Below, piece after piece: positions 10,279-32,000 of a stretch of 32,000 bases of DNA. This DNA comes from Desulfocapsa sulfexigens DSM 10523 (GTDB lineage Bacteria > Desulfobacterota > Desulfobulbia > Desulfobulbales > Desulfocapsaceae). A program made the translations under genes and the position numbers. How positions within the stretch are numbered: position 1 is the first letter of the stretch; every line of letters begins with the position of its first letter. The stretch is taken from the NCBI RefSeq assembly GCF_000341395.1, contig NC_020304.1, positions 2,190,001 to 2,222,000 of the forward strand, read 5' to 3'. Below the pieces are notes generated by a model, which saw only the letters and a program-made list of their open reading frames with translations, ran no database searches and was not told the DNA's origin.

Positions 10279-10417
10279 TTTTAGCAGGGTGACATGGCTT
10301 TTACAGTAAATGGTAAATGATTCTTGTATGTCATGAGGATATGTTGTAGTTTTTTTTAATAGTATGCAAAATTAGTGATTTATCTGTGGTTTTACTATTC
10401 TTTAAGGAGGGATGTTC

Positions 10418-11806: not shown

Positions 11807-11826
11807 AATAGAATTAAGGTTGGGAG

Positions 11827-13098: not shown

Positions 13099-13134
13099 GT
13101 CACTCCTTACTTCCCTTTTTAATGGGTAAAAGTC

Positions 13135-14565: not shown

Positions 14566-14611
14566 CGATACGTAATGGCTCTTTTGTTAGAGGTAGCTAT
14601 ACTTGTAGAGG

Positions 14612-16922: not shown

Positions 16923-17790
16923 TTATAGAAATTTTCCGTATTATACGTCCTAGGCAGTGGACTAAGAATGTGCTCATCTTTGTACCACTTTTTTTTAGTA
17001 AAAATATTTTTAATACCAGTCTTGTTTTACATGCACTCTTCGCAGCGATAATTTTTTTCTCTGGCAAGTAGTGCTGCATATATTTTTAATGACATCTTAG
17101 ATCGACATGCAGATGTAAATCATAGGAAAAAATGTACTCGCCCTATAGCGGCCGGGACATTAGATATTCGTACGGCTTCCATTCTCTGTGTACTTCTCAT
17201 CGTTTTTTCCTTGTACTTGGCATATCTCCTGAACACAGCATTTTTCCTATTAATATTTGGCTATTTTCTGTTGAATGGTGCCTATTCATTATTTTTAAAA
17301 AAAATACCTGTTTTGGATGTTTGTATTTTGGTGTCTTTTTTTCTGTCCCGATTGTTTGCCGGTTCAGTTGTTACTGGTATTATATTGTCAACGTGGCTTA
17401 TCTTTGTGGCCAGCCTGGTCGCCTTGTTTCTTGGGTTTTGTAAACGTCGTCAAGACCTGCTTCTGTGCTTTACAGAGGAACAGGGGGAGCCTTATGTGCG
17501 AAAATATTCCCCGGGCTTTCTGAATGGGGTGATTTTTGCCATAGCGCCAGTTATCATGGGCAGTTATCCATAGTTACACTATGGATTACAGGACGGTTGC
17601 CCACACAGGATCGTATGGACCTATGGCATCTGTGCCATTTGTTTGTTACGGAGTTTTCAGGTACCTGCAATTACTGTATGGAAAAAGCCCGGAAAGTGAT
17701 GTGTTGCTGGTGATATCTTGTGACAGGCGTTTGCAAATCAATATTACTTTGTATACTCTGATTTGTTTTGCAGTGCTATATTTGAGATAA
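16922..17790 (+). pseudogene. UbiA-family prenyltransferase, decaprenyl-phosphate phosphoribosyltransferase-like, disrupted
   Basis: Family-typical sequence is split over three frames. Frame 2 reads ..IIRPRQWTKNVLIFVPLFF..ALFAAIIFF and stops at 17069. Frame 0 reads LASSAAYIFNDILDRHADVNHRKKCTRPIAAG... and stops at 17571. Frame 1 reads ..SVPFVCYGVFRYLQLLYGKSPESDVLL..DRRLQ.. and ends at 17790. The first shift lies in the T7 run at 17052-17058. There is no ATG, GTG or TTG between the frame-2 stop at 16901 and the RPRQW motif. Confidence 0.7.
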
Positions 17791-17988
17791 AAACGACATG
17801 TTATCCGTCAAACGTCAAAAACATCCTTAAACTCTATTCTGTTATAGTAAAACCAGATATAATAAAAAAATATTGGTATTCTAATCTGTTGTATGGATAC
17901 GGTAACTTTCTGAGTATCTCTCTGTTAGAAGACTTTTGTTGTCCATGTTCTACAAATAAAGAATACATAATCGCAGGGTGGTGAAACT

Positions 17989-19380
17989 ATGGAGCAAAAT
18001 AGATATATTAACTTCCTCATCGCCTCGTTCTTCCTTTTGATCTTCTTTTTTCTGTATGCATCAGCCATAGATTTTTCCGCTCCCGGTATCTTGAATCATA
18101 ATGTCATATTTGATATTGATCCTGAAAGAGTTGTTAATGACATGGCAGGTAGTGAACAGATAGTAGAAGTCCATAAACATCCACTATATGGTTTGTTTTT
18201 TCGCGCCATAATGCCGCCCATTATTGAACTGTGTGAGACTCTAAGGACAGGATTAAATCATCACGAAAGCTATTCTTTTGAGATAATTGAAAAGATCACT
18301 CAACAGCCACTCGAGATAACGGCAGTAACTTTTCTTATCTGTTTTGCTGGAGCGTGCAGTGTCGCTATTTCTTTTTTGATCTTTACTCGATTTCTCAACA
18401 ATCGTTTTGACGCAATATTTTTTACGTTGTTGTTTGGACTCTCTCCACCTGTATGGGTTCTGTCTTCAGTTCCTGAAACGTTTTCCCTGAATCTTCTCTG
18501 TATCGTGTGTGCGTTCTATCTCCAAGCAACCCTGCCTTGTAAAACGTTTTCACAAAGAAATATGGGGCATAGTGTATTTTTCTTACTGGGATTTGTTGCC
18601 ATTGGTATCACATTGCCCAATATTATTTATGTGGCAGTCTGCTATCTTTTGTATCTCAATAGGCAGCAGTTGCAGATATGGCAGTTTGCTGGGACAATGT
18701 TTATTTATTCTATTGCGTTGTATGGTGCAGTTGCCCTGGGATCTTTTATTCAATCCAATATGTATGCAGTCACCTTTACCCATATAAGTCCAATGGATTA
18801 CAGCTCAGTTTTTATCCGAGAAAATACATGGAACCATAATATTCATCTTGGCAAGGATGTACTGGTGGGCTGTGTACAATTGGGACGCAGTTTCTTTCTT
18901 GAAACACTCATAGCGCCTAAGGTTATTTTACACGTATACCACTATGTGGACTCGTGGCGCATTCTTGCATTTTCCTATAAGGTTTCTTGGGTTTTTATAT
19001 TGGGCGTGTTTGGCTATTGCGTTGCTTTGATTTCATGTGTCAGGGTATTATTTCGCCCGGACGTCTGGTCTGGCGAAGTCATTATTGCAATTTTTATAAT
19101 AGGTTTTAATTGTCTGTTTCATACGTTTGTGCATGGGCTTGGTATTCCATTTATTTATTCAATACATGTGGTCTTTCCCTTACTGTTTCTTCTGGCCGTT
19201 GCATATAAGGCCAACGCTTTTCATTTTAAGAAAGTATTTCTTGTGGTGTTTGTCTGTACAGTTATTCTAAATAACTCTCTTTTTATTAGCAGGATCAATA
19301 GTATCATAAAAAATGATGACCCCACTATGCTGGGCCGACTTGAAAATAGTCACGGCCCAACACAACCTAATGCGGAATGA
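17989..19380 (+). CDS. polytopic membrane protein, possible GT-C-fold glycosyltransferase
   Basis: 463-aa ORF with at least 10 hydrophobic segments. An acidic motif (FDIDPERVVNDM) sits in the first loop after TM1, where GT-C enzymes carry their catalytic acidic residues. I do not recognise a specific family. Confidence 0.45.
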   Translation: MEQNRYINFLIASFFLLIFFFLYASAIDFSAPGILNHNVIFDIDPERVVNDMAGSEQIVEVHKHPLYGLFFRAIMPPIIELCETLRTGLNHHESYSFEIIEKITQQPLEITAVTFLICFAGACSVAISFLIFTRFLNNRFDAIFFTLLFGLSPPVWVLSSVPETFSLNLLCIVCAFYLQATLPCKTFSQRNMGHSVFFLLGFVAIGITLPNIIYVAVCYLLYLNRQQLQIWQFAGTMFIYSIALYGAVALGSFIQSNMYAVTFTHISPMDYSSVFIRENTWNHNIHLGKDVLVGCVQLGRSFFLETLIAPKVILHVYHYVDSWRILAFSYKVSWVFILGVFGYCVALISCVRVLFRPDVWSGEVIIAIFIIGFNCLFHTFVHGLGIPFIYSIHVVFPLLFLLAVAYKANAFHFKKVFLVVFVCTVILNNSLFISRINSIIKNDDPTMLGRLENSHGPTQPNAE

Positions 19381-19543
19381 GTGAGGACATGAAAGGATTT
19401 CTAAGGTGCTAATAGCTTCTTTTGGCACCGCTAGTGGTTTTTATATGTCAGTATTGGTTGGGGGGTGTGCGTTAAAAGATGATACGAGCATGTTGTACCT
19501 CCATCCTGGCTGCCGTTGAATGTGTTCTGACAATCATAAAAGC

Positions 19544-20623
19544 TTAGAAGGTTGATCGAGTGGTTATATCCTCAAAGACTTGTTGGACTTGAAGTAACAA
19601 TTCTGAAGGGATTTCTTCAGTATCCGTCTCATAACTTCTTGGCTGACGAAATCTGCTGGCCTGTTCAATAAAAAGCTCGCTCTGCTCTATACCTATTTTC
19701 TCAGCCAATAGTCTGAGCCCTTCTACTGGATTCGCAATTAGCCTGTCATACGAAAGGAACAGAGCATGCGAGGAAGCTGTGGCGGCAAGATAGCCATAGC
19801 ATGCGCACCAATAGGCCAGCCAAAATGACAGTGAATTTGTGGCCTTATACGGAGTGTCATTGAGCCAGTTTGAGAAATTAACAGGTTTTAGGGTGCGACC
19901 GAAGTCGTAATGTCCAATTGCTTGCATATAGGATTTTGCGAATTTGTCGTCAGCATGAATTTTTAGGAAATTCTGGTGCTGTTGCAGCAGTGAGGAAGCA
20001 TGAGCTATCGGGTCACGATATAAAATCACTGTGATGGAGTCGGGGAATATTTTTCTTAAATAATTGACACGGGATATGTTTAAGTTGTTTTTTGAGATAT
20101 AACGTATAGTTGCAATATTGTTTGAGGCAGATAAAACAATAATTTTTCGAATATGATCCCTTAAAAAATGTTCGAAATCTCGATCGCGCTGCCCCGCCCA
20201 CGCCTCTATGTGCCCCTTTTTATAGTTTGATCTCCAGAAAGTGCGCCAAACAATTTCTTCAAATGCCTCCGGGCTGTCTATGCCCACCATCATACCATCA
20301 CCATGCGCCCGCTCTCTTTCTTTATCATTGCTTTGAAATGATTGAGAAAAACGATTCCATAACAGCGGTGTCAACACGAAAGGCATATTTCGGTAACTAT
20401 GACTGGTGAACTCATCAATAGTATTACAAAGCTCCAATAGTAAGGTGGTGCCAGCCCTTGGCAGCGCTGTGATAAATACCGGACGCTTTACGTCTATGCT
20501 CGAGAGTCTTTCAGCAAATAGTGTGTTTTCAAAATCTGATAATGCTGCCTGGGCAGTCCAGGAGAAAAACGCTATTTTGTGCAATACTCGATCAAGAAAG
20601 CCGTAACGATTTTCAAAGGCCAT
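19544..20623 (-). CDS. PAPS-dependent sulfotransferase family protein (cytoplasmic)
   Basis: 359-aa ORF. The 5'-phosphosulfate-binding loop is LPRAGTTLLLEL. A 3'-phosphate-binding-like region is RYISKNN...ILYRDPIAHASSL. There is no signal peptide or TM segment. Confidence 0.75.
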   Translation of the reverse strand: MAFENRYGFLDRVLHKIAFFSWTAQAALSDFENTLFAERLSSIDVKRPVFITALPRAGTTLLLELCNTIDEFTSHSYRNMPFVLTPLLWNRFSQSFQSNDKERERAHGDGMMVGIDSPEAFEEIVWRTFWRSNYKKGHIEAWAGQRDRDFEHFLRDHIRKIIVLSASNNIATIRYISKNNLNISRVNYLRKIFPDSITVILYRDPIAHASSLLQQHQNFLKIHADDKFAKSYMQAIGHYDFGRTLKPVNFSNWLNDTPYKATNSLSFWLAYWCACYGYLAATASSHALFLSYDRLIANPVEGLRLLAEKIGIEQSELFIEQASRFRQPRSYETDTEEIPSELLLQVQQVFEDITTRSTF

Positions 20624-20625
20624 CG

Positions 20626-21003
20626 TTATTTTTTCCTAAACAGCCAAAGGATTACGTACACAAAGACAGTACTAGCGAGAATGAATTGCCAAGTTAATGT
20701 GAAATAGATAACAGCCATCATCGATAAAACCCCTGTTTGCTCCAGCAGCCATATAAGACCAACAGGAAGTCCTATAGCCGCTGCACTGCTGAAGAAAATC
20801 AGGATAAAAAGGCTAAACAGCTTGATGGCATGTTTTTGAAGGGCCTGCTCTTTTTGTCGATCATCCAGAGTGGAGTTTTGCATCACTGAAGCAGCCTCTT
20901 TCGCAATCGCAAGAACCTTGAGACTATTGTCTACCAGCCGCAACCCCTTCAAAAGAATAATAAACCCAACGACCAGTATAATTGCACCGACCAAAGTACT
21001 CAC
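20626..21003 (-). CDS. small membrane protein, hypothetical
   Basis: 125-aa ORF with a GTG start that overlaps the upstream stop (GTGA). It has 3-4 TM segments. Its stop lies 2 nt before the sulfotransferase start. Confidence 0.5.
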   Translation of the reverse strand: MSTLVGAIILVVGFIILLKGLRLVDNSLKVLAIAKEAASVMQNSTLDDRQKEQALQKHAIKLFSLFILIFFSSAAAIGLPVGLIWLLEQTGVLSMMAVIYFTLTWQFILASTVFVYVILWLFRKK

Positions 21004-21317
21004 TGATTTGGCTTATCACTGTTAGATGGATTATCTTCAGCAGCATCTCGATTCATGGGGGCTTGCTCCAACCGTTCTTCCAGGGATTCATTGGCATAGA
21101 CATTTTTCTTTCTCAGTAGTCTTTTTATTGGAAACCACAAGAAACCAAGGATGGCAACAACCACGGCAAAAATTAAAGCTAGTAGTGAACCTATAGCGGA
21201 CAAACCAGTGCCGGGCCCAACGTAAGCGAATGCGGTAGCAGGAATAAAAACGAAGCTAAGGCAAAATAAGCATGTTGAATGGTAAATTTTCATGAACAAA
21301 TCTCTAAATTTGAGCAT
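21000..21317 (-). CDS. small signal-peptide/TM protein with acidic C-terminal tail, hypothetical
   Basis: 105-aa ORF, with an alternative ATG at 21293. The signal-like segment is CLFCLSFVFIPATAFA. It is followed by YVGPGTGLSAIGSLLALIFAVVVAILGFLWF (TM), a basic patch KRLLRKK and then a low-complexity acidic tail. Confidence 0.45.
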   Translation of the reverse strand: MLKFRDLFMKIYHSTCLFCLSFVFIPATAFAYVGPGTGLSAIGSLLALIFAVVVAILGFLWFPIKRLLRKKNVYANESLEERLEQAPMNRDAAEDNPSNSDKPNQ

Positions 21318-21370
21318 TGAGTAATGGTACTAAATTGTACATTCCCTTTCCAGATAAACGTGTACGTTTA

Positions 21371-22711
21371 CTACTGACATGACTCCCTCGCATCAGAAAA
21401 AAATTTCTGATCCATTGCAATGGGCAGGCGCTGAGCATCATCCACTATACCTGCCAGCCCACCAGCAATAATATTCATGTAGTCCCACACTATTTCGTTG
21501 TCTCCTGTAATCTCCACTACACGCCCTTTAGTCGACTCGACCAACAGCATATTGCCATTAGGTAAACGTTGGTGCTTTCCCATAATATGAGTGAAGAATG
21601 GCGTTTCTTGACTGCCCTCAAATACGGTGTTCACAGTATTATCACGAGTATCCCATAAGACTATTCGGCTTGACGGATTTTTGACATCTGGCAATAAATT
21701 ATTGTTATCAAAAATAGTCACTGTATTACCGTCGACGAAATCAGGATCGTGCTGGCGTAATACCTGACCTATGCTGGATGCTTTGAGCTTGTGGGTAGCG
21801 CCATCAAAAACCATAACGGAATTAATGTTTCGTAGTGAAATCATGATGTCACCCGTTTGAAAAATTCCCGACGTCATTTTGTTGGAAAATATCTCAATAT
21901 CGTTAAGGTGTAAGGTATCTCCATGCACTACAGTATCCCAATTATCTATGCTGGACATATATAACAACCCAGACAGTCCATTATTATGAAGAAGATCAAA
22001 AATAGAAATTTCTTCCAGTAGTTTACCACTCGAAGATACTTTGAGAATCGTGAATTCCTGAAATATTGTGTGGTAATTGGGGATTGAGGCCTCTTTGTCG
22101 TAGTGATTAATTTGACCTGGCACCCAGAAATTCCCCTGATCGTCTCGATCTATAGAGTGGTGAGTTCGATGGGGGAAATTCCATACCACATTACCGCAAG
22201 CGTCCATGCGAGTAAGCCCGACCCTTTCCAGATTAAAAACAATATCACCATTTTCTATAACTTTTACACCGTGAACATGAGTGCCAGGGGCTGATTTAGG
22301 TTGGTCTTCTTCAGGTATATGATTAAAGTCAGGCCAAATTTGAAATGGGTCTATAGACCAGCGATGAATCTCATTTCCCTGATCATCGACAACAAGTATT
22401 CGAAAGTCTTTTTGCTGAGTAATTCCACTAATTACAGTCAGACCTTGCTGCATTAAGACGGGGGATCGAGTGAGCACCCGATCAACACGGGCTGTTTCGC
22501 TAAAATAAAATGGCAAAGCAGCTGCCTCATTACCGACCATTTCAAGCAGACCACTTTTTGCAAGGTTAAATCCACTTTTAATATACTCATAAGGAAATAA
22601 TTTGAATTCACTGACAGCCAGACCGCAGGAGAATAGAACCATTGCAATTGACAGGCAAAAGAGCCCAAGAGATAAAGAATCTAGATGTTTACTTAAAGAT
22701 TTTTTGGGCAT
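21371..22711 (-). CDS. arylsulfotransferase (ASST)-like beta-propeller protein, N-terminally membrane anchored
   Basis: 446-aa ORF with a signal anchor (LGLFCLSIAMVLFSCGLAV). Repeated propeller-like blades carry His motifs (HRTHHSIDRDDQGNFWVPG; HGDTLHLNDIEIF...GDIMISLRNINSVMVFD; LRQHDPDF). These resemble the PAPS-independent aryl-sulfate sulfotransferase families. The call is from memory only. Confidence 0.55.
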   Translation of the reverse strand: MPKKSLSKHLDSLSLGLFCLSIAMVLFSCGLAVSEFKLFPYEYIKSGFNLAKSGLLEMVGNEAAALPFYFSETARVDRVLTRSPVLMQQGLTVISGITQQKDFRILVVDDQGNEIHRWSIDPFQIWPDFNHIPEEDQPKSAPGTHVHGVKVIENGDIVFNLERVGLTRMDACGNVVWNFPHRTHHSIDRDDQGNFWVPGQINHYDKEASIPNYHTIFQEFTILKVSSSGKLLEEISIFDLLHNNGLSGLLYMSSIDNWDTVVHGDTLHLNDIEIFSNKMTSGIFQTGDIMISLRNINSVMVFDGATHKLKASSIGQVLRQHDPDFVDGNTVTIFDNNNLLPDVKNPSSRIVLWDTRDNTVNTVFEGSQETPFFTHIMGKHQRLPNGNMLLVESTKGRVVEITGDNEIVWDYMNIIAGGLAGIVDDAQRLPIAMDQKFFSDARESCQ

Positions 22712-22808
22712 GCTTCTTTCTAGCCGAGGTTGTTAGTCTTGGGATATATTGATGAAAAAATGTAATAAAGCCTCTATATTCAAGTGAATCGCTTCCAGAA
22801 CCCATTCA

Positions 22809-23816
22809 CTAAAGCCATCCTGATTTCCGATACCAGGCAACCGTTTTTTTTATCCCATTTTCCAAAGTCCAATGGGGCCGAAATCCAAGCTCAATTTGTA
22901 TGCATTTGGAACTGCAAAGCCAACCAGCCTGTTTGATCTCACACCATTTATCAGGGTTTAAATCCTGCGGACGGTTGCTAAGGCGTCCCAGTAAACCCAT
23001 AATCTGACAAGCAATCCATATAAGAGATAATGGCAGTGTCAGGAGGAAAGCGCGTGGATTTATGTGTGCGGCGATTGCGTTCATCAGAGTGTCCCAGGTA
23101 TAGGACTTGCCGTCTGTTACATAGAACGTTTTTCCATTTGCCGCATCTGTTGTACCAGCCAGAAGAATAGCCCTTACCAGGTCATCCACATAGATAAGAC
23201 TGACAGGGAAATCTCTGAAGCCACTCTTTATCATAATTCCATGGGAAGTTGCTTTAAAGAGTGGCTTCATTCCATGATCTCTGGGACCAAAGACAATGGA
23301 AGGCCTGAGGATAACGACCGGAAATTGATCCGCGATGGAGAGAACCACTTTTTCTGCTTCCTTCTTGGACTGGCCATATGCTGAGACTGGCAGTGAGTTT
23401 GGCGCCGATTCATTCACCCCTGGTTCCTTGGAACATGGTCCCGCGGCGGCCTGGCTGGAAATGTAAACGAGTTTCTGATGGCTCGGGGCATGTTGAGTGA
23501 TGAGTTGTACCAGGTTGCGTGTGGTGTCCAGATTGCCCTTGAAGTATTCGGATTTCCTGACGGCCTTCGTTGTTCCTGCGACATGAAAGACGATATCTGC
23601 TTTTTGTATCTGTGCTCCAAGTGAGGCTGGATTGTTGAGATCTCCTGAAAGCAGTTCAATATCTTTATGTTGTAGATGACGGGCTTTTGTTTCTGAGCGG
23701 ACAAGACAGCTTACTGAGTAGTGACGTTTGATAAGCTCGAAAACCAGATTTGTCCCGATAAATCCAGAGCCTCCGGTGACAAAAGCGTGCAGTTGCTTTG
23801 CTCCTTCGGTAGTCAT
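22809..23816 (-). CDS. NAD(P)-dependent epimerase/dehydratase-family SDR
   Basis: The track ORF extends to 23906. The ATG at 23816 (MTTEGAKQLHAFVTGGSGFIGTNLV) overlaps the upstream stop as ATGA and sits just before the Rossmann motif. The catalytic YxxxK is SAYGQSKKEAE. Confidence 0.85.
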   Translation of the reverse strand: MTTEGAKQLHAFVTGGSGFIGTNLVFELIKRHYSVSCLVRSETKARHLQHKDIELLSGDLNNPASLGAQIQKADIVFHVAGTTKAVRKSEYFKGNLDTTRNLVQLITQHAPSHQKLVYISSQAAAGPCSKEPGVNESAPNSLPVSAYGQSKKEAEKVVLSIADQFPVVILRPSIVFGPRDHGMKPLFKATSHGIMIKSGFRDFPVSLIYVDDLVRAILLAGTTDAANGKTFYVTDGKSYTWDTLMNAIAAHINPRAFLLTLPLSLIWIACQIMGLLGRLSNRPQDLNPDKWCEIKQAGWLCSSKCIQIELGFRPHWTLENGIKKTVAWYRKSGWL

Positions 23817-24895
23817 GGAATTTCTTTTCGTATAATGCTCAAAACTTTGCCGTTTTTCCCCACTCGGTATTGAATGCCTGCCCAGCCAATAACCATCGAA
23901 AACCACGTTCGGATGTGACAGTACGCTGCCATAGTGAGGGCCGCAAGAGATGCGGGGAACCAGGAAAAAAATGATCCTGGAGAAGGATGTTTGGAATAAA
24001 GAAAAATTGTGAACAAGAAAAATAAGAAAATACAGGGAAGACTGTATTGGAGCAGGAACCTGGAATAGGGAAAAAACAGGCTTATTATGGTGATGCCAAG
24101 ACTTGCCAGAACAGAGATTGCAGCAACAATACTCAGAAGACCTGTCACAATCCAGAGTACGGGGAAAATAAATTTAAGATAGGCCCACTGTCTTGTCAGC
24201 CAGATAATCCAGCTGGTAACACTTAAGTCACTGAGATGTGTTTTGAGGTCAGTTTTGTCTGGGATAGCTACTGGGATATTGTTTTTCTGTAACAGTTTGG
24301 CAAGGCTGACATCATCAACAATATTTTCCTTCCAGGTGTCAGCGACGGAGATGTTCTCAAAAACTTCTCGTCTTATTGCCGTTGCACCGCCCCATGGCTG
24401 GCCAAGGAAAGGTAATCTACGGATAAGGCTGAGGGTGAGTACACAAATTGCTCTTCCCTGTGAGCAAGTACAGGAGCCTTTTGAGTAAATTTGATGATAG
24501 CCGGAACTCACCATACATGAAGTATGCGAGAGTAAGGGGTGGAGGAGGCAATCCAACCAATCTGGAGGAGCTGTGTGGCCGGAGTCACAAAATACCAAAA
24601 TATCCGGTTTGTTTCCCACTTGCTGTACCCCTACGAGTAGGTTGTGGTTCTTTTGGCTGCAGCTTATGGCTCTGCCGGAATAGGTGTATGTTGCTCTTTT
24701 GTTTTCCTTTGTGATCGCAGTAATAATAGGTGTTGCAGGGTCGTTTTCGTCCTGAAGAACAAAAATGACATTGAAAGATTGATAATCCTGATTAACCAAG
24801 GTTTTCAGGTTCTCTGCAAGAACCGGTGATGCTCCAGTAACCGGTACAATGAGCGATACAAAAGGAACTGGTTTGACTGTGTTGTTGTCGCTCAT
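23813..24895 (-). CDS. family-2 glycosyltransferase of the ceramide-glucosyltransferase/HpnI-like (GT21-like) type with C-terminal TM helices
   Basis: 360-aa ORF. It has VSLIVPVTGASP, VLQDENDPA, FCDSGH, VDDVSLAKLL and LTRQWAY (a Q/RxxRW-like motif). Several TM helices follow. Confidence 0.75.
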   Translation of the reverse strand: MSDNNTVKPVPFVSLIVPVTGASPVLAENLKTLVNQDYQSFNVIFVLQDENDPATPIITAITKENKRATYTYSGRAISCSQKNHNLLVGVQQVGNKPDILVFCDSGHTAPPDWLDCLLHPLLSHTSCMVSSGYHQIYSKGSCTCSQGRAICVLTLSLIRRLPFLGQPWGGATAIRREVFENISVADTWKENIVDDVSLAKLLQKNNIPVAIPDKTDLKTHLSDLSVTSWIIWLTRQWAYLKFIFPVLWIVTGLLSIVAAISVLASLGITIISLFFPYSRFLLQYSLPCIFLFFLFTIFLYSKHPSPGSFFSWFPASLAALTMAAYCHIRTWFSMVIGWAGIQYRVGKNGKVLSIIRKEIP

Positions 24896-24912
24896 TGTGC
24901 TTTCGCCATTAT

Positions 24913-26058
24913 TTATATAAGATCTTTTTCGTATACTCTGTAACGTTTATCCGGTTTGAGTCCACCATCTTCGTAAAGACGATTCATTGCATCATTATCC
25001 TCCAGAGACCATCCGAGTTCCGCATACTGATATTTCGGTAATTTTTGTATTAAGTCAATGAGGTACTTGAAGGCCAGTAATGGCAAACCCATCTGGCGAT
25101 ATTGTTCTTTGATACCAAAAAGCAGTGCTCGAAACCCGGTTATTTCAGATTCGTAGAGAACCTTTTTGAAAAGAGCGCTAATTCCAAGTTTACCGTTGAA
25201 GCGTTTGAGGAGTGGATTGAAGTCGGGCAAAAAGAGGCAGATTCCGGCTAATTCATTCTTGTAATACATAAAGAAGGCAAATTCCGGTTCCAGGATGGGG
25301 AGAAGGTTTTTAGCAAGTTCTATCTCTTCGTCTTCTGTGGTCGGGACAAACCCCCAATTGTCTTTCCAGCATTCATGGTAAACAGAGCAGAGGAGGTGGA
25401 TATCTTCTTTAGTCCATTTTTTGGGGTAATAAATCGATACGTCTCCTTTTTGATAGAGTTTGTCGGAGAGTGAAAAAACCCATTCCGGAACTTCAATATC
25501 CTTGGTGAAACGGTATGAAAAGAGATCTTTTTCTTTTCTGAACCCTGCAGCATGAATGAGTTCAAGATAATAGGGTGGGTTGTACGACATCATGAGGGCT
25601 GGTGGTTTGTCGAAACCCTGAATTAATAATCCTGTTTCATAATTAGTGGAAGGGTTTAAAGGCCCGCGGAGAAAGGTCATCCCCTCTTCAATAACCCATT
25701 GTTCCACTGCCTGAAACAATGCGAGTGCGGCTTCAGGGTCATTTTCACATTCAAAGAATCCCCAGGCGCCCATTTTTTCGTCATGGTAAGCATTGTAATT
25801 ATTATCAACCAGGGCGATGATTCGGCCAATAGTCTGGCCATTCCTCCTGGCCAGGAAAAATTCTCCTTTAGAGAACTTCCAGAAAGGATGTTTTTTTCGA
25901 TCCAGTAACCCGGCTACTGAGGATTTTAAAGGTGGTACCCACAAAGGGAAGTCCTCGTAAATTCTCCACGGCAGTTCGATAAATTCCGCAAGTTCTTTTC
26001 GTGTTTGAACCGTGGAGATTATAACTCCGGCACTGTAATTTGTATGAGGCTTCCACAT
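24913..26058 (-). CDS. GNAT-fold acyl-CoA N-acyltransferase-like protein (~380-aa family)
   Basis: 381-aa ORF. The region FFLARRNGQTIGRIIALVD...WGFFECENDPEAALALFQAVEQWVIEEGMTFLRGPLNPSTNYETGLL resembles a widespread uncharacterised GNAT-like family. The assignment is from memory and is weak. Confidence 0.45.
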   Translation of the reverse strand: MWKPHTNYSAGVIISTVQTRKELAEFIELPWRIYEDFPLWVPPLKSSVAGLLDRKKHPFWKFSKGEFFLARRNGQTIGRIIALVDNNYNAYHDEKMGAWGFFECENDPEAALALFQAVEQWVIEEGMTFLRGPLNPSTNYETGLLIQGFDKPPALMMSYNPPYYLELIHAAGFRKEKDLFSYRFTKDIEVPEWVFSLSDKLYQKGDVSIYYPKKWTKEDIHLLCSVYHECWKDNWGFVPTTEDEEIELAKNLLPILEPEFAFFMYYKNELAGICLFLPDFNPLLKRFNGKLGISALFKKVLYESEITGFRALLFGIKEQYRQMGLPLLAFKYLIDLIQKLPKYQYAELGWSLEDNDAMNRLYEDGGLKPDKRYRVYEKDLI

Positions 26059-26129
26059 GGTTTCTGTCTGGTGCGAAATAAAAGAAACACCCTTTTTCCT
26101 GTTCTATGGTTGTTGCAAGGGGGTAAAAG

Positions 26130-29100
26130 TTAATCTACCCATTTCATTTGTAGTCCTTTGATTTCCATGATAATGAAGCCGTTGCTGTCCACGCCGTGTA
26201 CATCCCAGACGGTTCCAGTTGCATCCTCCAGGTTTAATTGTCCATTCAGTAGAAGTTCTTCGCCAGCTCGACAGTTTCTTGTGAATGATACAGAGTCAAT
26301 TGCTGCAGGTATCATTATTCGTGGATCGCCATTGTTCCGGATACTGGTGAAAAAGAAGGTTATTTGCATCAGTGCTTCCAGAAGATAGTGGGGGTACTGG
26401 AAGATGGAGGGAAGAGCCTCTGAAAAGTCATTTACATCAGGGTACAGCATTTTGCCCCGGATGGTGTCATGGTGACATGTGATGATTGAGTCAATCACTT
26501 GATAACGGTTTTTCAGCTGAGAGTAATTCTCGTACAGCTCTGCGATTTTCCCGTGTGAAAGAAGAGGGGGGGCGTTTTCAACTGTGATTTTTTCCCGTTC
26601 CGGAGAAAGTCGGGTCGTGCTGGCGAGAACCTGAGCCATGAAGTAGGTGTCCATGAATGTTTCCTGCGTGTCCGCTGATGATTTTCGGGGGCGTTTGAGC
26701 TCAACATTGCAGGTTTGCAAACTGGAATGGGTTGTTTCTCCCTGACAGAACAGATGTATCTCAGTATTCGTATCTAACGGACACTCAATCATTTGTAATA
26801 ATTTAATATTTTGCAGACCGTTCATCTGCAGATGTGGAAAAAGGATACGGCTGCTCTCCAAAAATGCTTCTACTGCCATTATGGCAGACATGATTGGATG
26901 TCTGAGTAATTTCGAAGGCTTGTGGTCTGCCAGCCACTGGTCTCTGTCTGATGAGAGTGTACGGGTGGCATGAATTGTTTTTGTGCGTAGGTCAAGACGT
27001 GCGATAGAATCAATCATCGGCAGTCTTTCCAAATCAAACCAGTGCGTATTTTGGTCAACAGGATCTGACAGGAGTATTTCTGATTGAAGGACTGCTCTAA
27101 GGGGGACGACCCAACAGTCATCAGCCAGACCACAGAGGAGTTCCCGAAGCATAATTTCTGCTGCTTCATGTACCTCAAGAAAAATATCACCGCCCAGGTT
27201 TTGAACGAGAATATCTTTTATCTCCGGTGTGTCTGCCATACCCGTGCCTTCGATTGGTGGGAGCCAGAATACCTTTGTCTGTACCGACTGGTGGCTGTCC
27301 CTGAAAGTGCGACAGTAGGTAGACATTGCCCGATTGGCTATACAGTAATTAGCCTGACCAATACTGCCGCCTGATGCAGCAATTGAAGAAAGAGCCACGA
27401 CAAAACGTAAGCCCTTGTTCTCAGCAGCCTGAAGAAGATTAATAGCTCCAAAAAGTTTAACATCAAGCACTTCTTTGAACATGGCCGGTTTAATGATTGG
27501 GATATAACTGTCTTTGATAATTCCTGCTCCGTGTATGACACCATCAATTTTTCCATGTTCTTTTACGATGGAATCCATGACTTCAGCAACCTGCACTTTG
27601 TCGCTGACGTCACAGGGAATATACTGAGTTGTTGCTCCCAGTTGTTCGAGTTCTGTAATGGTCTGGAGTACTTCTATGTTGTGCAGGACAGCCTTTCGTT
27701 TTGCTTTTAATTCCCGAGGAGACAGGTTGTCATAAGTTTGTTCAAGGTAACTGGAGATGAATTGCTGCTTTTTACCGGGTTCTGCTGGTACGTCTCCCTG
27801 GGAGAGTGAAGGTTCCAGCGATGTGCGCCCGAGGAGGATGAGTCTGCAGCCGAATGGAGCCAGTGAGCGAGCCAGATACGATGTAACTCCCCTGCCTCCG
27901 CCTGAAATAACAATGACATCATCTTTGGCGAGAGTCAGTGCCGGTTCCTCCGCACCAGAGAGAGTATGTCTGGCAGCTTTGTAGGTGTATAGTTGATGGT
28001 CTTCGATAAGCAGATCAATAAGTGGATTGGATAGATTGAGAGCAGTTCGTAGCAGTTCAGGTATATCGACCTTGCCCCGGAATGCAAGTCTCCGTAAACA
28101 AAGGCCCTTGAATTCTTTGGCCGCTGTGAAGAGAAGGCCAAGGATGGATTGGCCAAGGAGAGAGTCGGTCTCGACTGGACTGTTGTTATGGTGGAGATGA
28201 ATGCAAAATTTCCGTTTGTTTGATTTAAGAAAATGTTGAAAGAGTGCGAAGTAGCTGGTCACTAAAGAGACGATTTCAAGAGGAGACAGGTTTTGTTCAG
28301 CCTGGCTGTCACTGATCAGAACAATGCCTGTCAATGGACCTTCTGCCGAAATCTCTTCTACAACCCGCAGTGTTTCTTCAGAGTTGAAGAAATCTATATA
28401 ACCATCTTGGTGATGATCCTTTTTTATTTGTAAGGAAACTGCCTCACAACGATAACTGTCCCTGAAGGTGTTATTGAGTTGTTGAAGGTTGTTTTCAGCA
28501 TCGAGGGAAAGGAGGAGAATGCGACTGTCAGGGGCAATTTGCAGGCTCGTTTCTTTATTTACAGTGATTTTTTCTTCCTGATAAACAAGCCGATTGATGC
28601 CATACTTTGAGGATGAGACGAAGGTGGGCGTATTATGTGTTGAGGCGGAAATGGATTTGTTTATCGAAACCTTTTGGGCGGGGACTTGGAAATCGTCGCC
28701 TTCCATGAGCTCAGCAACACGATTGGCCAGATCCTGAACAGTTTGTACGGACAGGAAATCTTCCAGGGTTGTAGTTATGTTGAATGTTTTTTCAGCGGCA
28801 TCAACGATAATTGGTATACGACTGGATTTAATGGCCAGGTCATCTCTGACATTCATTTCCGCATCGATTTCATCACGCTCATAGCCAGTGGCATCCATAA
28901 TAATCTGGATGACCTGTTCAAGTACGGCATTATTCTCAGGAACGGGTCCAGCGTTGCCGGCACCAGGCGTATCTGGAACGAGTCCTGGAGTGAAATTTTC
29001 CGGCATATACTCAGCCAAAGCTGCTCGATCGAAGTGTGGGTCAATATTCTGTTGAATGGCTTTTATAATTGCGGGTTTGAGATATCTCTCAGCACCATGA

Positions 29101-31937
29101 AGGGCGTAGGAATACACTTCCTGCTGAATGATATTCAAAACAGCTTCCCTGGATATCGTGAGCTCTTTCTGCTGCAGGGAAAGCGTTGATATTGTAGCTG
29201 GTGTTATGCTCCCATTCACAAAAAGGGATGAAACAGATTGGCGTAGTGCCTGTACCTCGTTTTCCGCTGAACAGCTGCTGATACACTGCACATTTTTTGT
29301 GCATTCATGAATAAGGTTGCAGAGGGTGTCCTGTGGGCCGATTTCAAGGAAGCAGCGACAGCCGAAATCATTCACAAGGCTTAAAACGTTATTCTGCCAG
29401 TGAACGGGGGATTCCAAGTGGGAGACGATTATTTTTTTGATTTCATCTGGGTCATTCGGATAGGGCTGACAAGTTGTATTGGAGATTACTGGAATCTCGG
29501 GAGCCTGCATCCGTATGTCGCCGATGTAGTCACCCAGTTCCTCACGAATTATTCGCATTATAGGTGAATGAAAAGCCATTGAAACAGGCAACTGGACGTT
29601 CCAATGGCCATCGCTGTCAAGTATCTGTTTGAAATTTACCAGTTCTTTAGTCCCACCACCAATAACTGTCTGTCTGGGCGAGTTGAAGTTGGTGAAGAAG
29701 AGATTGGTGTTTTCGGCAATCTTTTGGTTGAGATAGTCTTCCGGTGCGTTAACGGCAAGCATGGAACCGGGATCTACATCCATCTTTGAGGCTTTTGCCA
29801 TGCACTGGGCACGTTTGTTGATAATTTTAAAACCGTCCTCATAGGTGAAACACCCGGCAACACAGAGTGCAGTCAATTCTCCCATGGAGTGACCGGCCAT
29901 GGCTGTTGGCTGTAGTCCGAACTCGTTCAACTGTTTGTAGATGGAGTATTCAAGAAGAAAAAGGGCCGGTTGCTGCCACTCCGTATTTTGAAGTTTACTG
30001 CCATCCTCGTTGAAAAGGAGGTGAAGGATGTCAAAGTCGGCAAGCTCTGCCAAGGTATCCATCCAGTGACGAATAACGGGAAAGGTTTTATACAGCTCTT
30101 TTCCCATTTGTGGATAATGCGTTCCCTGACCGGAAAAAACAAGGCTAAGGGGCAAGCTTCCTGTCTCTTCGGCTACTGTTATGCCAAGCTCTGTCAGTTC
30201 TTTTTTCTGTTTGAATGTCAGTTTTGCCAGATTCTGTTTATAGGGCTCCAGTATTTTTTCGAGGGCAGAGTTCTTATTTTTATTATCAATGGCTCCGATC
30301 CTGAATGTCTGGTTGTTGGATTCTGTTTTGAAGAAGGCAACGCCTACAGATGGTGAAGGGGCAATTGTGTCTGTCAGAATGTGCGGTGCCTGGCTGTTGT
30401 CTCTGGTGCTGTTTTCAACCTGAACTACGTAGTTTGCACCACCAAAGCCGAATGCATTTACCTCAAAACGTCTTGCTCTCTCAAGGGGTTGTGGCCATGG
30501 TTCCGCTTCCTTGCAAACATGGAACCCGGCCTCTTCCAGGCCTATGTCAGGATCTGGTGTATGGTAATTGAGCGTGGGAGGAAAGGTTCCGGCATGCATC
30601 GCGCAAATACCACGAATAAGGCTACTGACTCCAGAAGCTCCCAGTGTATGACCGATTTGAGATTTGAAGGAGGAGAGTACAACAGAGCTGTTGGGCGGGT
30701 AGATTTGTTTGAGAGCATTGACTTCTTCCCGATCTCCCATATGAGTACCTGTTGCGTGGCATTCAACCATGTCGACCTGCTCTGGGCCATAGCCAGCATC
30801 TTCAAAGGAAGTGCTGATGGCAATTTTTTGTGTTTCTGCTACAGATTCAACCATCCCAAGGTGATTGTTGCTGGCTCCTACACCGGTAATATAGGCAAGG
30901 ATTGGAGCACCCCTTTTCCGGGCAACGGATTCACGCTCCAAAACAATCATTCCGCCTCCCTCACCAAGAACCATACCACTGCGTTCGCTGTCGAAAGGAC
31001 GGGAATAGGCAGATGGGGATTCGTTGCTATAGCCTTTTCCCGCCAAAGCTCCCAGGGCGGAAAATTCAAGAAATGATCCTTGGCTGAGCAATTCTTCACC
31101 ACCGCCAATGATGGCTGCATCCAGAACCCCAGTCCGCATTAAATGAACAGCATTATAAAGTGCCGTGAGGCTTGAGGCGCAGGCAGAGGTGACAGAGAAA
31201 CTCGGACCATTAAATCCGTATTTGTTACAGATAAAGCCCGCTGCCGCGCAATTGAGACGGCCCAGGAGTGTCGTGTCATCTATTTCAAGATGACCAGTCC
31301 TGATAGTCTGTTCCAGCGAATCACTCTGGTCCGGGGAGAGATCGCACGATTGTCGGATAGTATCAGCAATTGTTTTGGCTGCCGTATATATGGTAAGGTC
31401 TGCAGTGGTGGAGCCAAATTCGCCGGCATTTTGTGAGACGAGTACTCCTATACGGTGGCGGGGGATATCAGAATCCAAAAGCGTTGAGTCGTGAATTGCT
31501 TTGTAGGCAAGCCACAGTGTAAGTTTTGTGGAGGCGGTCATGGTCCGGAAATCATGGGGTGGAATACCCAGTTCTTTTCGCGCAATGTTAAGGGATAAAA
31601 AAGCGCCTACCTTACAGTATGTTTTACCTTTGGTGCTGGAATTTTCTTTAAAAATATCCCTGTGATCCCATTTTTCAGCAGGTATTTCGCTGATGCCGCT
31701 TTTTTTTGCCAGACATGCCTGCCAGATTTCTTCTGGACTGTTACCCAGGGAATTTGCAGCGGCCATTCCAGTGATGGCAATACGCTCCCTGACGTTTTTT
31801 CTATTGCTGGACGGTAGTGATGTTTCCTGTGCGGAAGAATTCTGCAATATTGCTTTGAATTGATTTTCTGCCAATAATTGGTGGATTTTTGCAACGGGGA
31901 GGATCTCCTGCAGATCTCCGGCGATTGAGCCACTCAT
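26130..31937 (-). CDS. type I polyketide/fatty-acid-type synthase, single module KS-AT-ACP-KR-DH (PfaA-like order)
   Basis: 1935-aa ORF with AGGAAGGA 6-8 nt upstream of the ATG at 31937. The domain motifs are listed in the sub-features. The reading frame stays open upstream to the window edge, and 31938-32000 has no stop in any minus-strand frame. An upstream gene may therefore abut or overlap, or the true start may be further upstream. Confidence 0.95.
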   Translation of the reverse strand: MSGSIAGDLQEILPVAKIHQLLAENQFKAILQNSSAQETSLPSSNRKNVRERIAITGMAAANSLGNSPEEIWQACLAKKSGISEIPAEKWDHRDIFKENSSTKGKTYCKVGAFLSLNIARKELGIPPHDFRTMTASTKLTLWLAYKAIHDSTLLDSDIPRHRIGVLVSQNAGEFGSTTADLTIYTAAKTIADTIRQSCDLSPDQSDSLEQTIRTGHLEIDDTTLLGRLNCAAAGFICNKYGFNGPSFSVTSACASSLTALYNAVHLMRTGVLDAAIIGGGEELLSQGSFLEFSALGALAGKGYSNESPSAYSRPFDSERSGMVLGEGGGMIVLERESVARKRGAPILAYITGVGASNNHLGMVESVAETQKIAISTSFEDAGYGPEQVDMVECHATGTHMGDREEVNALKQIYPPNSSVVLSSFKSQIGHTLGASGVSSLIRGICAMHAGTFPPTLNYHTPDPDIGLEEAGFHVCKEAEPWPQPLERARRFEVNAFGFGGANYVVQVENSTRDNSQAPHILTDTIAPSPSVGVAFFKTESNNQTFRIGAIDNKNKNSALEKILEPYKQNLAKLTFKQKKELTELGITVAEETGSLPLSLVFSGQGTHYPQMGKELYKTFPVIRHWMDTLAELADFDILHLLFNEDGSKLQNTEWQQPALFLLEYSIYKQLNEFGLQPTAMAGHSMGELTALCVAGCFTYEDGFKIINKRAQCMAKASKMDVDPGSMLAVNAPEDYLNQKIAENTNLFFTNFNSPRQTVIGGGTKELVNFKQILDSDGHWNVQLPVSMAFHSPIMRIIREELGDYIGDIRMQAPEIPVISNTTCQPYPNDPDEIKKIIVSHLESPVHWQNNVLSLVNDFGCRCFLEIGPQDTLCNLIHECTKNVQCISSCSAENEVQALRQSVSSLFVNGSITPATISTLSLQQKELTISREAVLNIIQQEVYSYALHGAERYLKPAIIKAIQQNIDPHFDRAALAEYMPENFTPGLVPDTPGAGNAGPVPENNAVLEQVIQIIMDATGYERDEIDAEMNVRDDLAIKSSRIPIIVDAAEKTFNITTTLEDFLSVQTVQDLANRVAELMEGDDFQVPAQKVSINKSISASTHNTPTFVSSSKYGINRLVYQEEKITVNKETSLQIAPDSRILLLSLDAENNLQQLNNTFRDSYRCEAVSLQIKKDHHQDGYIDFFNSEETLRVVEEISAEGPLTGIVLISDSQAEQNLSPLEIVSLVTSYFALFQHFLKSNKRKFCIHLHHNNSPVETDSLLGQSILGLLFTAAKEFKGLCLRRLAFRGKVDIPELLRTALNLSNPLIDLLIEDHQLYTYKAARHTLSGAEEPALTLAKDDVIVISGGGRGVTSYLARSLAPFGCRLILLGRTSLEPSLSQGDVPAEPGKKQQFISSYLEQTYDNLSPRELKAKRKAVLHNIEVLQTITELEQLGATTQYIPCDVSDKVQVAEVMDSIVKEHGKIDGVIHGAGIIKDSYIPIIKPAMFKEVLDVKLFGAINLLQAAENKGLRFVVALSSIAASGGSIGQANYCIANRAMSTYCRTFRDSHQSVQTKVFWLPPIEGTGMADTPEIKDILVQNLGGDIFLEVHEAAEIMLRELLCGLADDCWVVPLRAVLQSEILLSDPVDQNTHWFDLERLPMIDSIARLDLRTKTIHATRTLSSDRDQWLADHKPSKLLRHPIMSAIMAVEAFLESSRILFPHLQMNGLQNIKLLQMIECPLDTNTEIHLFCQGETTHSSLQTCNVELKRPRKSSADTQETFMDTYFMAQVLASTTRLSPEREKITVENAPPLLSHGKIAELYENYSQLKNRYQVIDSIITCHHDTIRGKMLYPDVNDFSEALPSIFQYPHYLLEALMQITFFFTSIRNNGDPRIMIPAAIDSVSFTRNCRAGEELLLNGQLNLEDATGTVWDVHGVDSNGFIIMEIKGLQMKWVD
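26133..27020 (-). other. PKS-type dehydratase (double hot-dog) domain
   Basis: LADHKPSKLLRHP is an HxxxGxxxxP-type motif with Lys in the Gly position (His1672, codon 26922-26924). YPHYLLEALMQ corresponds to the DxxxQ motif with Glu in place of Asp. The domain runs to the C-terminus, which leaves no room for a TE or PPTase domain. Confidence 0.65.
27243..27932 (-). other. PKS ketoreductase catalytic subdomain
   Basis: The Rossmann motif is VIVISGGGRGVTSYLARSLA. HGAGIIKDSY keeps the Asp of the LDD-type (B-type) position. The catalytic residues lie in SSIAASGGSIGQANYCIANRA (Tyr1531, codon 27345-27347). A KR structural subdomain probably occupies aa ~1110-1335. Confidence 0.8.
28704..28937 (-). 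other. single acyl carrier protein domain with non-canonical attachment motif
   Basis: DDLAIKSSRIPIIV aligns with the DLGIDSIKRVEI / LGxDSL motif. The predicted phosphopantetheine Ser is Ser1038 (codon 28824-28826). It is preceded by Lys instead of the usual Asp. Confidence 0.6.
29313..30152 (-). other. PKS acyltransferase domain (malonyl-type motifs)
   Basis: FSGQGTHYPQMG; GHSMGE (Ser684, codon 29886-29888); and MAFHS, which corresponds to the HAFH-type malonyl-specificity motif rather than YASH. Confidence 0.85.
30417..31787 (-). other. PKS ketosynthase domain
   Basis: RIAITGMAAANSLG. The active-site Cys is in VTSACASSL (Cys253, codon 31179-31181). The His motifs are ECHATGTHMGD and KSQIGHTLGASG. 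The C-H-H triad is complete. Confidence 0.9.
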
Positions 31938-32000
31938 ATACTGTCCTTCCTGGTAGCAAACATCTGGGGAAAGAGGGTGGCCGCTTTTTGGGTGCTGGTT

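Follow-up and report, generated by a model that had tools for sequence, protein, structure and literature searches.

Herein, we describe a string of eight genes from Desulfocapsa sulfexigens DSM 10523, located in a 32,000-nucleotide stretch of contig NC_020304.1 (positions 2,190,001 to 2,222,000; this whole stretch is referred to as the window). The string joins a polyketide synthase (PKS) and three companion genes to a four-gene sulfotransferase cassette, and all eight open reading frames (ORFs) lie on the minus strand (Table 1). In the order in which they are read, they encode the PKS, a GNAT-like protein, a glycosyltransferase (GT) of family GT21, an extended short-chain dehydrogenase/reductase (SDR), a beta-propeller resembling arylsulfate sulfotransferases (ASSTs), two small membrane proteins, and a sulfotransferase of the type that depends on 3'-phosphoadenosine 5'-phosphosulfate (PAPS). 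The gaps between consecutive ORFs are 71, 17, -4, 97, 53, -4, and 2 nt; the overlaps and the 2-nt gap were read in the sequence itself. The first overlap (ATGA) joins the GT21 stop codon to the SDR start codon, the second (GTGA) joins the stop codon of the first small protein to the start codon of the second, and the 2 nt separate the second small protein from the sulfotransferase gene.

A preliminary description of this DNA had listed the same eight ORFs, coordinates, and gaps, with which our coordinates and direct reading agree. Its domain calls were upheld by Pfam matches above gathering scores and, for the GNAT-like protein, by an AlphaFold model and Foldseek. It had also assigned all eight genes to a single dedicated pathway, a view that the comparisons reported below do not support. 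A consensus scan of the intergenic gaps found no promoter-like or terminator-like sites; its totals were not above those of shuffled sequences, so the scan was uninformative. Scans for Rfam families and tRNAs gave no matches in the window. The eight genes may be transcribed together.

Table 1. Features of the window, with the eight genes of the string first (KS, ketosynthase; AT, acyltransferase; ACP, acyl carrier protein; KR, ketoreductase; DH, dehydratase; FAS, fatty acid synthase; HSD, hydroxysteroid dehydrogenase; TM, transmembrane; AF2, AlphaFold2)
Feature	Position	Strand	Basis
Type I iterative PKS/FAS, KS-AT-ACP-KR-DH, 3' 1956 codons only (ORF as called, 26130..31937)	26130..32000	-	Pfam and NCBIfam; frame open to base 32000
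Tandem-GNAT acyl-CoA/ACP N-acyltransferase-like protein, 381 aa; marker of the PKS-GNAT-SDR core	24913..26058	-	AlphaFold model and Foldseek
GT21/GT2 glycosyltransferase with C-terminal membrane segment, HpnI-like/ceramide-glucosyltransferase-like	23813..24895	-	PF13506 34.5 bits, PF13641 36.2 bits
Extended SDR, 3beta-HSD/NAD_binding_4/HpnA- and OleD-like reductase	22809..23816	-	Pfam, NCBIfam
Cassette gene 1: membrane-anchored ASST-like beta-propeller, predicted extracytoplasmic	21371..22711	-	Pfam, AF2, Foldseek
Cassette gene 2: small procoat-like membrane protein (mini-protein)	21000..21317	-	Family alignment from 70 loci
Cassette gene 3: 3-TM sulfotransferase anchor, 125 aa	20626..21003	-	Homology to N-terminus of fused sulfotransferases
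Cassette gene 4: PAPS-type sulfotransferase, soluble domain, predicted cytoplasmic	19544..20623	-	PF13469 and PF00685
Polytopic 463-aa membrane protein without family (slot cargo)	17989-19380	+	Hydropathy
UbiA-family gene, frameshifted (slot cargo)	16928-17784	+	tblastn in three frames
Acyl_transf_3 O-acyltransferase (slot cargo)	15870-16922	+	Pfam; in L001 and L004, not L002
Polyprenyl-phosphate-sugar-synthase-like GT2	14612-15586	-	NCBIfam, Pfam
FAD amine-oxidase-like protein	13135-14565	-	NCBIfam, Pfam
GDSL-like protein	11827-13098	-	NCBIfam, Pfam
B12-binding radical SAM protein	10412-11806	+	NCBIfam, Pfam
CapK/PaaK-like adenylating enzyme	8914-10278	+	NCBIfam, Pfam
LPG_synthase_TM/UPF0104 flippase-like protein	7915-8865	+	NCBIfam, Pfam

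Independence of the PKS unit and the sulfation cassette

Alignment with related loci separated the string into two parts. Window positions 22809-31998 and 17983-19351 aligned with the DNA of L001 and L004, the two closest syntenic relatives, while the 3.46 kb between them (19352-22808) had no counterpart. The junction alignment put the start of the extra DNA right behind the SDR stop codon. A convergent gene for a membrane protein ends ~50-120 nt past that codon in the relatives; the window has the cassette exactly between the stop codons of the two convergent genes. As judged from these alignments, the cassette is a 3.46-kb insertion relative to L001 and L004. A further locus, L084 (GCA_975001335.1; ~92% protein identity), has the same layout as the window. 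No direct or inverted repeats and no duplicated target were seen at the cassette borders when the junctions were compared with L001, L004, and L084. The GC and GC3 (third codon position) contents of the cassette were 0.41-0.43, compared with 0.47 for the PKS; these values are only slightly lower and fall within the range of the window, so that base composition gives no sign of a foreign origin.

The slot between the SDR and GT2 genes is variable. It is empty in L002 and holds a UbiA gene, an acyltransferase gene, and a gene for a polytopic membrane protein in L001 and L004. In the window, the UbiA-family prenyltransferase gene is spread over three reading frames, with shifts near 17056 and 17575-17594, and its L001 orthologue is intact (292 aa). 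The broken gene reflects either a pseudogene or sequencing or assembly errors.

The distribution of the PKS unit was determined in 83 loci with PKS or GNAT genes, comprising L001-L003 and 80 loci from a scan for the GNAT-like protein, each searched by tblastn with all window proteins. Beside the GNAT gene, a PKS was found in 66 of the 83 loci, the SDR in 39, and GT21 in 13, and many of the misses were at contig ends. The ASST-like protein, both small proteins, and the sulfotransferase were found in none of the 83. The sulfotransferases and both small membrane proteins that the preliminary description had placed in the PKS pathway are thus a separate four-gene cassette.

The converse search began with the sulfotransferase, which has 3603 homologues; a scan of metagenome contigs yielded 80 loci. 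Linkage was counted in the 43 of these with at least 2.6 kb upstream of the sulfotransferase gene. The first small protein was encoded nearby in 42/43 loci, the 3-TM anchor in 40/43, and the ASST-like protein in 38/43, usually in the order seen here. No real PKS or GNAT gene was found near the cassette in any of the 80 metagenome loci. The 93 nearest neighbours, taken from 25 long loci, represented 116 Pfam families, none of which recurred more than five times. The cassette was also found in three cultured strains. In Myxosarcina sp. GI1 it lies between housekeeping genes, for argininosuccinate synthase and a peptidase; on a plasmid of Paracoccus saliphilus DSM 18447 it lies among catabolic and sulfur-transport genes, with TRAP-transporter and CoA-transferase genes nearby; and on a plasmid of Tateyamaria omphalii DOK1-4 it lies among surface-glycan genes. 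The only names given to the cassette genes in RefSeq were "hypothetical protein", "sulfotransferase", and "arylsulfotransferase family protein".

By these gene neighbourhoods, 19544-22711 is a portable four-gene cassette that occurs in many phyla with unrelated neighbours and no PKS. The absence of the cassette from all 83 PKS loci, the absence of a PKS from all 80 cassette loci, and the clean insertion are together strong evidence that the two units are independent.

In two marine metagenome loci, L087 and L089, the cassette is clustered with two more sulfotransferases (Sulfotransfer_3 and Sulfotransfer_2), two adenylating enzymes, a Rv2949c-like protein of the chorismate-pyruvate-lyase type, YdjC, a GMC oxidoreductase, and GT2 enzymes. 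The Rv2949c-like enzyme could supply a p-hydroxybenzoate-type phenol, a candidate carrier or acceptor in those loci.

Proteins of the cassette

The ASST-like protein matched both ASST families of Pfam, PF14269 (Arylsulfotran_2) with 107.7 bits (cut-off 27) and PF05935 (Arylsulfotrans) with 52.7 bits (cut-off 24.2). Its N-terminus is basic, hydropathy shows one TM segment, near the N-terminus, and its AF2 model (mean predicted local distance difference test score, pLDDT, 89.7) consists of a long N-terminal helix followed by the propeller. Since a basic N-terminus and one TM helix precede the propeller, the propeller is predicted to face outward. The top PDB fold for the model was Cpz4 (9kf6/9kf4; E 4e-15, TM-score 0.53), and no other propeller came within five orders of magnitude of its E-value. 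At the level of sequence, phmmer found no match in the PDB, and the profile match to Cpz4 had an E-value of only 0.01. Among 43 sequences at 42-48% identity, residues H131, H184, H185, H268, R319, H321, and D322 were invariant. Of these five histidines, H321, in the motif RQHDP, aligns with WQHD of Cpz4, an alignment of motifs rather than a mapping to the sulfated histidine.

The catalytic histidine of Escherichia coli ASST, which is transiently sulfated, is His436 (PMC13426309). The ASST of E. coli CFT073, which works with DsbL/DsbI, is likewise an extracytoplasmic beta-propeller, and the protein described here has a near-invariant cysteine pair (C172/C445). However, the CFT073 enzyme is soluble and carries an N-terminal beta-sandwich, whereas the present protein is membrane-anchored, lacks that domain, has no Dsb partners here, and is paired with a PAPS enzyme.

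The first small protein, hereafter the mini-protein, consists of a signal-peptide-like leader ending in AFA, an invariant Tyr in the motif YVGPGTG, one TM helix, the motif WFPIKR, and a basic tail. From comparison with its 97-aa L084 orthologue, a start at Met9 (21293) is more likely than that of the ORF as called. The family comprises 1867 clusters in a library of representative sequences, none of which has a family name, and its top 150 matches are all 60-165 aa long. In these, Tyr was present in Y-[VILM]-G-P-G or a one-residue variant in 150/150 (median position 28), an AxA preceded it in 110/147, one TM helix followed, and W[YF]PxKR was found in 141/150. Such a pattern is typical of a cleavable signal peptide; once this was cut off, the invariant Tyr would form the N-terminus of the protein on the outer side of the membrane. 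The motif (Tyr after AxA, GPGxG) was not found in our literature searches. Members of the same family were also seen in L169 (6765-7004), L171 (6342-6581), and L172 (6342-6599). A possible use of Y-x-G-P-G plus a TM helix as the N-terminal anchor of larger enzymes was set aside, the top 150 matches all being small proteins.

The second small protein is homologous to the N-terminal 125 aa of sulfotransferases of 485-500 aa in Myxosarcina, Okeania, Hyella, Paracoccus, and Tateyamaria. It has three hydrophobic segments and ends in RKK. Due to this homology to the N-terminal extension of fused enzymes, which are found in many other bacteria (cyanobacteria and alphaproteobacteria in these examples), it is the membrane anchor of the sulfotransferase, encoded here by a separate gene. 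The sulfotransferase itself matched PF13469 (Sulfotransfer_3) with 53.2 bits (cut-off 27) and PF00685 with 30.9 bits, and showed no TM segment by hydropathy. A 5'-phosphosulfate-binding-type loop (PRAGTTLL) and the motif RYISKNN were invariant in 15 sequences at 46-91% identity, and its profile gave no more than marginal matches in the PDB. The topology of the anchor is predicted to place the catalytic domain in the cytoplasm, where PAPS is.

The closest precedent for such a pair of enzymes is the caprazamycin pathway. As summarized from Tang et al. 2013 in PMC4257720, a type III PKS (Cpz6) makes a phenolic pyrone, Cpz8 sulfates it with PAPS, and Cpz4 then moves the sulfate to the antibiotic. 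Cpz4 is an AST-type, PAPS-independent enzyme that acts on a sugar hydroxyl of a liponucleoside and has a preference for sugar hydroxyls of glycosides (PMC13426309). As in that system, the PAPS-type and ASST-type transferases of the cassette are encoded side by side, the pair adjoining in 38/43 loci. The two systems differ in three respects. The type III PKS that makes the phenolic carrier of caprazamycin has no equivalent in the cassette, and no neighbour recurred among the 93 flanking proteins. Both enzymes of the cassette are predicted to be membrane-tethered, on opposite faces, and they are accompanied by the Tyr mini-protein. Finally, the cassette occurs in many phyla and does not belong to any single natural-product cluster.

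The PKS unit and the surrounding genes

The PKS ORF as called starts with an ATG at 31937. The 63 bases upstream of this ATG are in frame and stop-free and encode NQHPKSGHPLSPDVCYQEGQY-M, which corresponds to SQHPKSGEYLSEDTCYQEGQF-M inside the 2579-aa PKS of L001, and the DNA alignment with L001 extends to base 31998. An open frame that matches the interior of the L001 PKS indicates that the gene is cut by the window end and continues past it, and that the ATG at 31937, which the preliminary description had taken for the start, is an artefact of the window edge. The length of 12.4 kb given there for the string is a lower bound only. Because the ORF is cut, an exact-sequence look-up of the window PKS returned no match.

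Orthologous PKSs ranged from 2417 aa (cut by the end of the locus) to 2698 aa. They carry ~640 extra N-terminal residues, made up of ~330 aa without a family and an NMO/FabK-type enoyl reductase (ER), which occupies residues 336-667 of the L001 PKS, ahead of the KS. The full order in the relatives is (~330 aa)-ER-KS-AT-ACP-KR-DH. In the window PKS, Pfam identified KS, AT, one PP-binding stretch (residues 1007-1074), KR, and PS-DH, all above gathering scores. By its domain models, the PKS is a fully reducing enzyme of the PfaD::PfaA fusion kind, which has a single ACP and lacks a thioesterase. A PDB sequence search returned only generic matches to modular PKSs and FASs, which did not help to place the KS. 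In L002, the PKS is ~120 aa longer, and the ACP stretch of the window (28700-28923) aligns twice (L002 ~7089-7419), which suggests a tandem ACP duplication in that protein.

The likeness to PfaA that had been noted for the PKS stands, yet the protein is not a PfaA. PfaA (TIGR02813) was the second-best NCBIfam match of the window PKS, but the window fragment scored 472.7 bits and the full-length L001 orthologue 477.9 bits, far below the cut-off of 1010.1 bits. The PKS shares the order KS-AT-ACP-KR-DH and a FabK/PfaD-type ER with PfaA/PfaD and with the myxobacterial Pfa1/Pfa2. It differs from PfaA, which has several tandem ACPs, in having a single ACP (L002 may have two), and from polyunsaturated fatty acid synthases in that the ER is fused to its N-terminus. 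The check for pfaB/C/D partners beyond base 32000 could be made in the relatives: no pfaB/C/D set lay upstream of the PKS in L001 and L002, where divergent glycosyltransferases were found instead, and no PfaC-type partner (KS-chain length factor-DH) or second KS gene lay within 10 kb. Other known PKS types fit no better. The PKS ends with the DH and holds no sulfotransferase or thioesterase domain for a chain release of the CurM/Ols type, and the model of Pks2, from mycobacterial sulfolipid-1, scored 292.1 bits against an equivalog cut-off of 2400.

The GNAT-like protein had no Pfam or NCBIfam match, and its sequence profile gave only a marginal match in the PDB (E 0.04). Its AF2 model (pLDDT 87.5) matched tandem GNATs in Foldseek with E-values of ~1e-13 (~3e-13 for 2wpw and 5kf1) and TM-scores of 0.57-0.61 over the whole chain. 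The best structures were the clavulanate tandem GNAT, glucosamine N-acetyltransferase, MAB_4324, and the mycothiol synthase MshD (2wpw, 5kf1, and 7q3a among the matches). The single chain holds two GNAT folds, as in tandem GNAT N-acyltransferases of the MshD or glucosamine N-acetyltransferase type. The GT of the string has TM segments at 238-301 by hydropathy; it exceeded the gathering cut-off of PF13506 (GT21; 21.7 bits) but scored only 70.6 bits with HpnI (TIGR03472; equivalog cut-off 310), so that it is a GT21 by Pfam only. The SDR matched the Pfam families Epimerase, 3Beta_HSD, and NAD_binding_4 above gathering scores. Bacterial ceramide synthesis (Spt, bCerS, CerR) was considered as an analogue of the PKS-GNAT-SDR set and was dropped, as no Spt-like domain or gene was present. 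In L084, the gap between the PKS and GNAT genes is ~430 nt and holds a called 61-aa ORF (4264-4449), versus 71 nt in the window.

The GNAT family is large, with 2222 homologues at 50-86% identity, and a pattern scan of one genome per species found it encoded in at least 587 genomes. The closest homologue (83%) was that of a Desulfocapsa metagenome-assembled genome. Most carriers are Desulfobacterota: Desulfobulbales, Desulfobacterales, Syntrophobacterales, Syntrophales, Desulfomonile, Desulfarculales, and Desulfovibrionaceae. The family was also found in Phycisphaerae/Sedimentisphaerales, Terriglobia, Aminicenantes, and Riflebacteria. The core occurs in two layouts. One is the order seen here, PKS-GNAT-GT21-SDR; the other, which is commoner, is a weakly GT-like protein followed by SDR, GNAT, PKS, a phosphopantetheinyl transferase (PPTase), and an ATPase of the ATP-binding cassette (ABC) type. 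The weakly GT-like protein matches TIGR04396 below the cut-off. In L015-L076 (e.g., L026 19334-21076 and L039 18882-20641), the PKS is followed by an Sfp-type PPTase and a DrrA-like ABC ATPase. A ~320-aa protein with only a faint match to surface-carbohydrate biosynthesis proteins stands before the core in the common layout. In the layout of the window, no PPTase or ABC genes were within reach.

A second group of genes, at 7915-15586, accompanies the PKS operon in related loci as well; L002 has these genes in the same order, and L001 and L004 share them in part. Taken with the PKS unit, this group recalls the genes of hopanoid synthesis. The best or near-best NCBIfam matches of the SDR, the GT21, and the radical SAM protein were HpnA, HpnI, and HpnJ, a faint match to HpnE was seen too, and a UPF0104 flippase-like protein and a GT2 are present, as neighbours of the HpnB/HpnL kind. 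However, the scores were 3-5 times below the equivalog cut-offs, and a PKS stands in place of the squalene-hopene cyclase. The 7915-15586 cluster looks like a toolkit parallel to the hopanoid one, joined to a PKS in place of a hopene cyclase. The stretch 291-7866 (plus strand) holds an unrelated regulatory and transport block, with a sigma-54 activator, a small Nitro_FeMo-Co-like protein, a histidine kinase, a receiver protein, UmpA/UmpB-like antiporter subunits, a P-II-like protein, and a CBS-domain protein.

The product of the PKS unit would be an envelope glycolipid. In the proposed pathway, the unit extends from 22809 to beyond 32000 and works together with the genes at 7915-15586. The synthase would make a long acyl chain, and this chain would be passed on by the tandem GNAT, through transfer to an amine, and/or by the extended SDR, through a reductive step or reductive release; these roles are assigned because of the folds and family matches of the two proteins. 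The membrane GT21 would then glycosylate the lipid. The presence of glycosyltransferase and SDR genes beside that of the PKS makes a lipid glycoside a reasonable product. The glycolipid reading is backed by the GT21, SDR, and tandem-GNAT calls, by the GT2 and flippase-like proteins of the cluster, and by the common layout, with its weakly GT-like protein upstream and its PPTase and ABC ATPase downstream.

A known pathway of this kind is that of the heterocyst glycolipids of cyanobacteria (Hgl), whose gene cluster combines a PfaA-like synthase with a reductase, a glycosyltransferase, and an exporter and yields a long-chain lipid glycoside; the preliminary description had drawn the same parallel. 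The present unit differs from it in its organisms, which are anaerobic Desulfobacterota, Planctomycetota, and Acidobacteriota, in its glycosyltransferase family (GT21), in its constant partner, the tandem GNAT, and in its reductase, which is stand-alone.

A proposed sulfate relay and its alternatives

Our reading of the locus is that it holds two units, a lipid-making operon and an autonomous sulfation cassette that works as a transmembrane relay and was recruited by a glycolipid or envelope-glycan cluster. We advance it tentatively, with a confidence a little short of even. The cassette was inserted right after the last stop codon of the PKS unit in a Desulfocapsaceae-like lineage. The opposite topology of the two enzymes and the analogy with Cpz8 and Cpz4 led us to propose the relay. 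Inside the cell, the PAPS-dependent sulfotransferase, held by the 3-TM anchor, would sulfate a phenolic carrier; outside, the Cpz4-like anchored transferase would hand the sulfate to an extracytoplasmic acceptor, so that one sulfate moves in two steps. The mini-protein would set its invariant Tyr at the outer face. The preliminary description had also proposed sulfation on both sides of the membrane. Two sulfations of one lipid are one possibility, but the Cpz8/Cpz4 precedent suggests that the enzymes act in series on one sulfate.

Because the cassette is found in many genomic settings, the acceptor is probably set by context. The context here is a cluster that appears to make a glycolipid and probably polyprenol-linked sugars; thus, the most plausible acceptor would be a hydroxyl group on a sugar, either of the glycolipid or of some other envelope glycan that the surrounding cluster makes. 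As for the carrier, the best candidate is the N-terminal Tyr of the mini-protein, which is the only conserved phenol encoded in the cassette, and a flippable membrane phenol (quinol) is the alternative. That the Tyr is the carrier, in a widespread self-contained system that works without export of PAPS, is doubtful, and we hold it with low confidence.

Several observations weigh against the relay and the recruitment by a glycolipid cluster. GT21 accompanies the PKS-GNAT core in only 13/83 loci. The ASST-like gene is missing from 4/43 cassette loci, so the PAPS enzyme can presumably act without the ASST-like protein. Neither the cassette nor its surroundings hold a type III PKS or anything else that would obviously provide a phenolic carrier. 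The predicted topology puts the Tyr across the membrane from the PAPS enzyme; as the carrier, it would have to be sulfated before export, at the cost of one protein per sulfate. Lastly, a promoter missed by our consensus scan could lie in the 97 nt that precede the cassette.

The relay has three rivals. The first holds that the cassette serves itself or a universal envelope component, by forming a sulfotyrosine on its own mini-protein or by sulfating a common surface molecule, and that its position is an accident of a variable slot. The mini-protein is the partner most tightly linked to the sulfotransferase, its Tyr after AxA is invariant, the cassette occurs in genomes without lipid or glycan genes nearby, and the cargo of the SDR-GT2 slot differs among L001, L002, and L004, all of which fit this explanation. 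However, the cytoplasmic sulfotransferase and the periplasmic Tyr would be on opposite sides of the membrane, an ASST-like enzyme would be needless if the Tyr were the final acceptor of the PAPS enzyme, and the co-directional insertion directly after the SDR stop codon favours read-through with the operon. We consider a self-serving cassette unlikely.

The second rival is the single pathway of the preliminary description, in which the PKS makes the aglycone, GT21 and the SDR provide the head group, the GNAT performs an N-acylation, and two sulfations take place, one in the cytoplasm and one in the periplasm. The tight co-directional spacing with its two 4-nt overlaps, the same gene order in L084, the lack of a detected terminator-like site between the genes, and the ability of Cpz4-type enzymes to sulfate sugars on lipid-linked molecules agree with such a pathway. 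It is improbable, given that the two gene sets do not co-occur beyond one close lineage, that comparison with L001 and L004 shows the cassette to be a clean insertion, and that ASST-type enzymes need an aryl sulfate donor, which the model does not supply. The PKS-derived glycolipid itself is a reasonable part of the earlier proposal, whereas sulfation is tied to it only by the adjacency of the genes in a single lineage. A sulfated PKS glycolipid is possible, though not specifically supported.

The third rival, in which the propeller is not a sulfotransferase (e.g., a binding protein or hydrolase) and the PAPS enzyme alone sulfates in the cytoplasm a product that is then exported, draws on the low similarity to characterised ASSTs, the modest TM-score to Cpz4, and the loci without the gene, but it is very improbable in view of the scores with both ASST Pfam models, the lead of Cpz4 over other propellers, and the invariant His, Arg, and Asp.

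Both halves of the locus are variations on known kinds, the PfaA-like lipid synthases and the two-step sulfation by PAPS-type and ASST-type enzymes. Our literature searches, which covered both modules, the mini-protein motif, and PfaA-like clusters in Desulfobacterota, returned only generic surveys of biosynthetic gene clusters and a survey from 2011 (PMC3098273), whose pfa-like "secondary lipid" clusters include uncharacterised types from sulfate reducers. As the preliminary description had supposed, no account of such a combination of genes was found, nor, as far as these searches reached, of the membrane organisation of the cassette with its Tyr mini-protein.

For annotation and genome mining, the apparent cluster is best split into two units. 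Among the lipid gene sets of anaerobic sediment bacteria that are still unstudied, the core of PKS, tandem GNAT, and SDR is one of the commoner, and its product could serve as a lipid biomarker. Sulfated envelope molecules are well known in eukaryotes and are rare and poorly explained in bacteria, in part since the donor PAPS is confined to the cytoplasm. If the relay is real, a PAPS enzyme on the inside and an ASST-type enzyme on the outside would provide a testable answer to how extracytoplasmic sulfation is fed.

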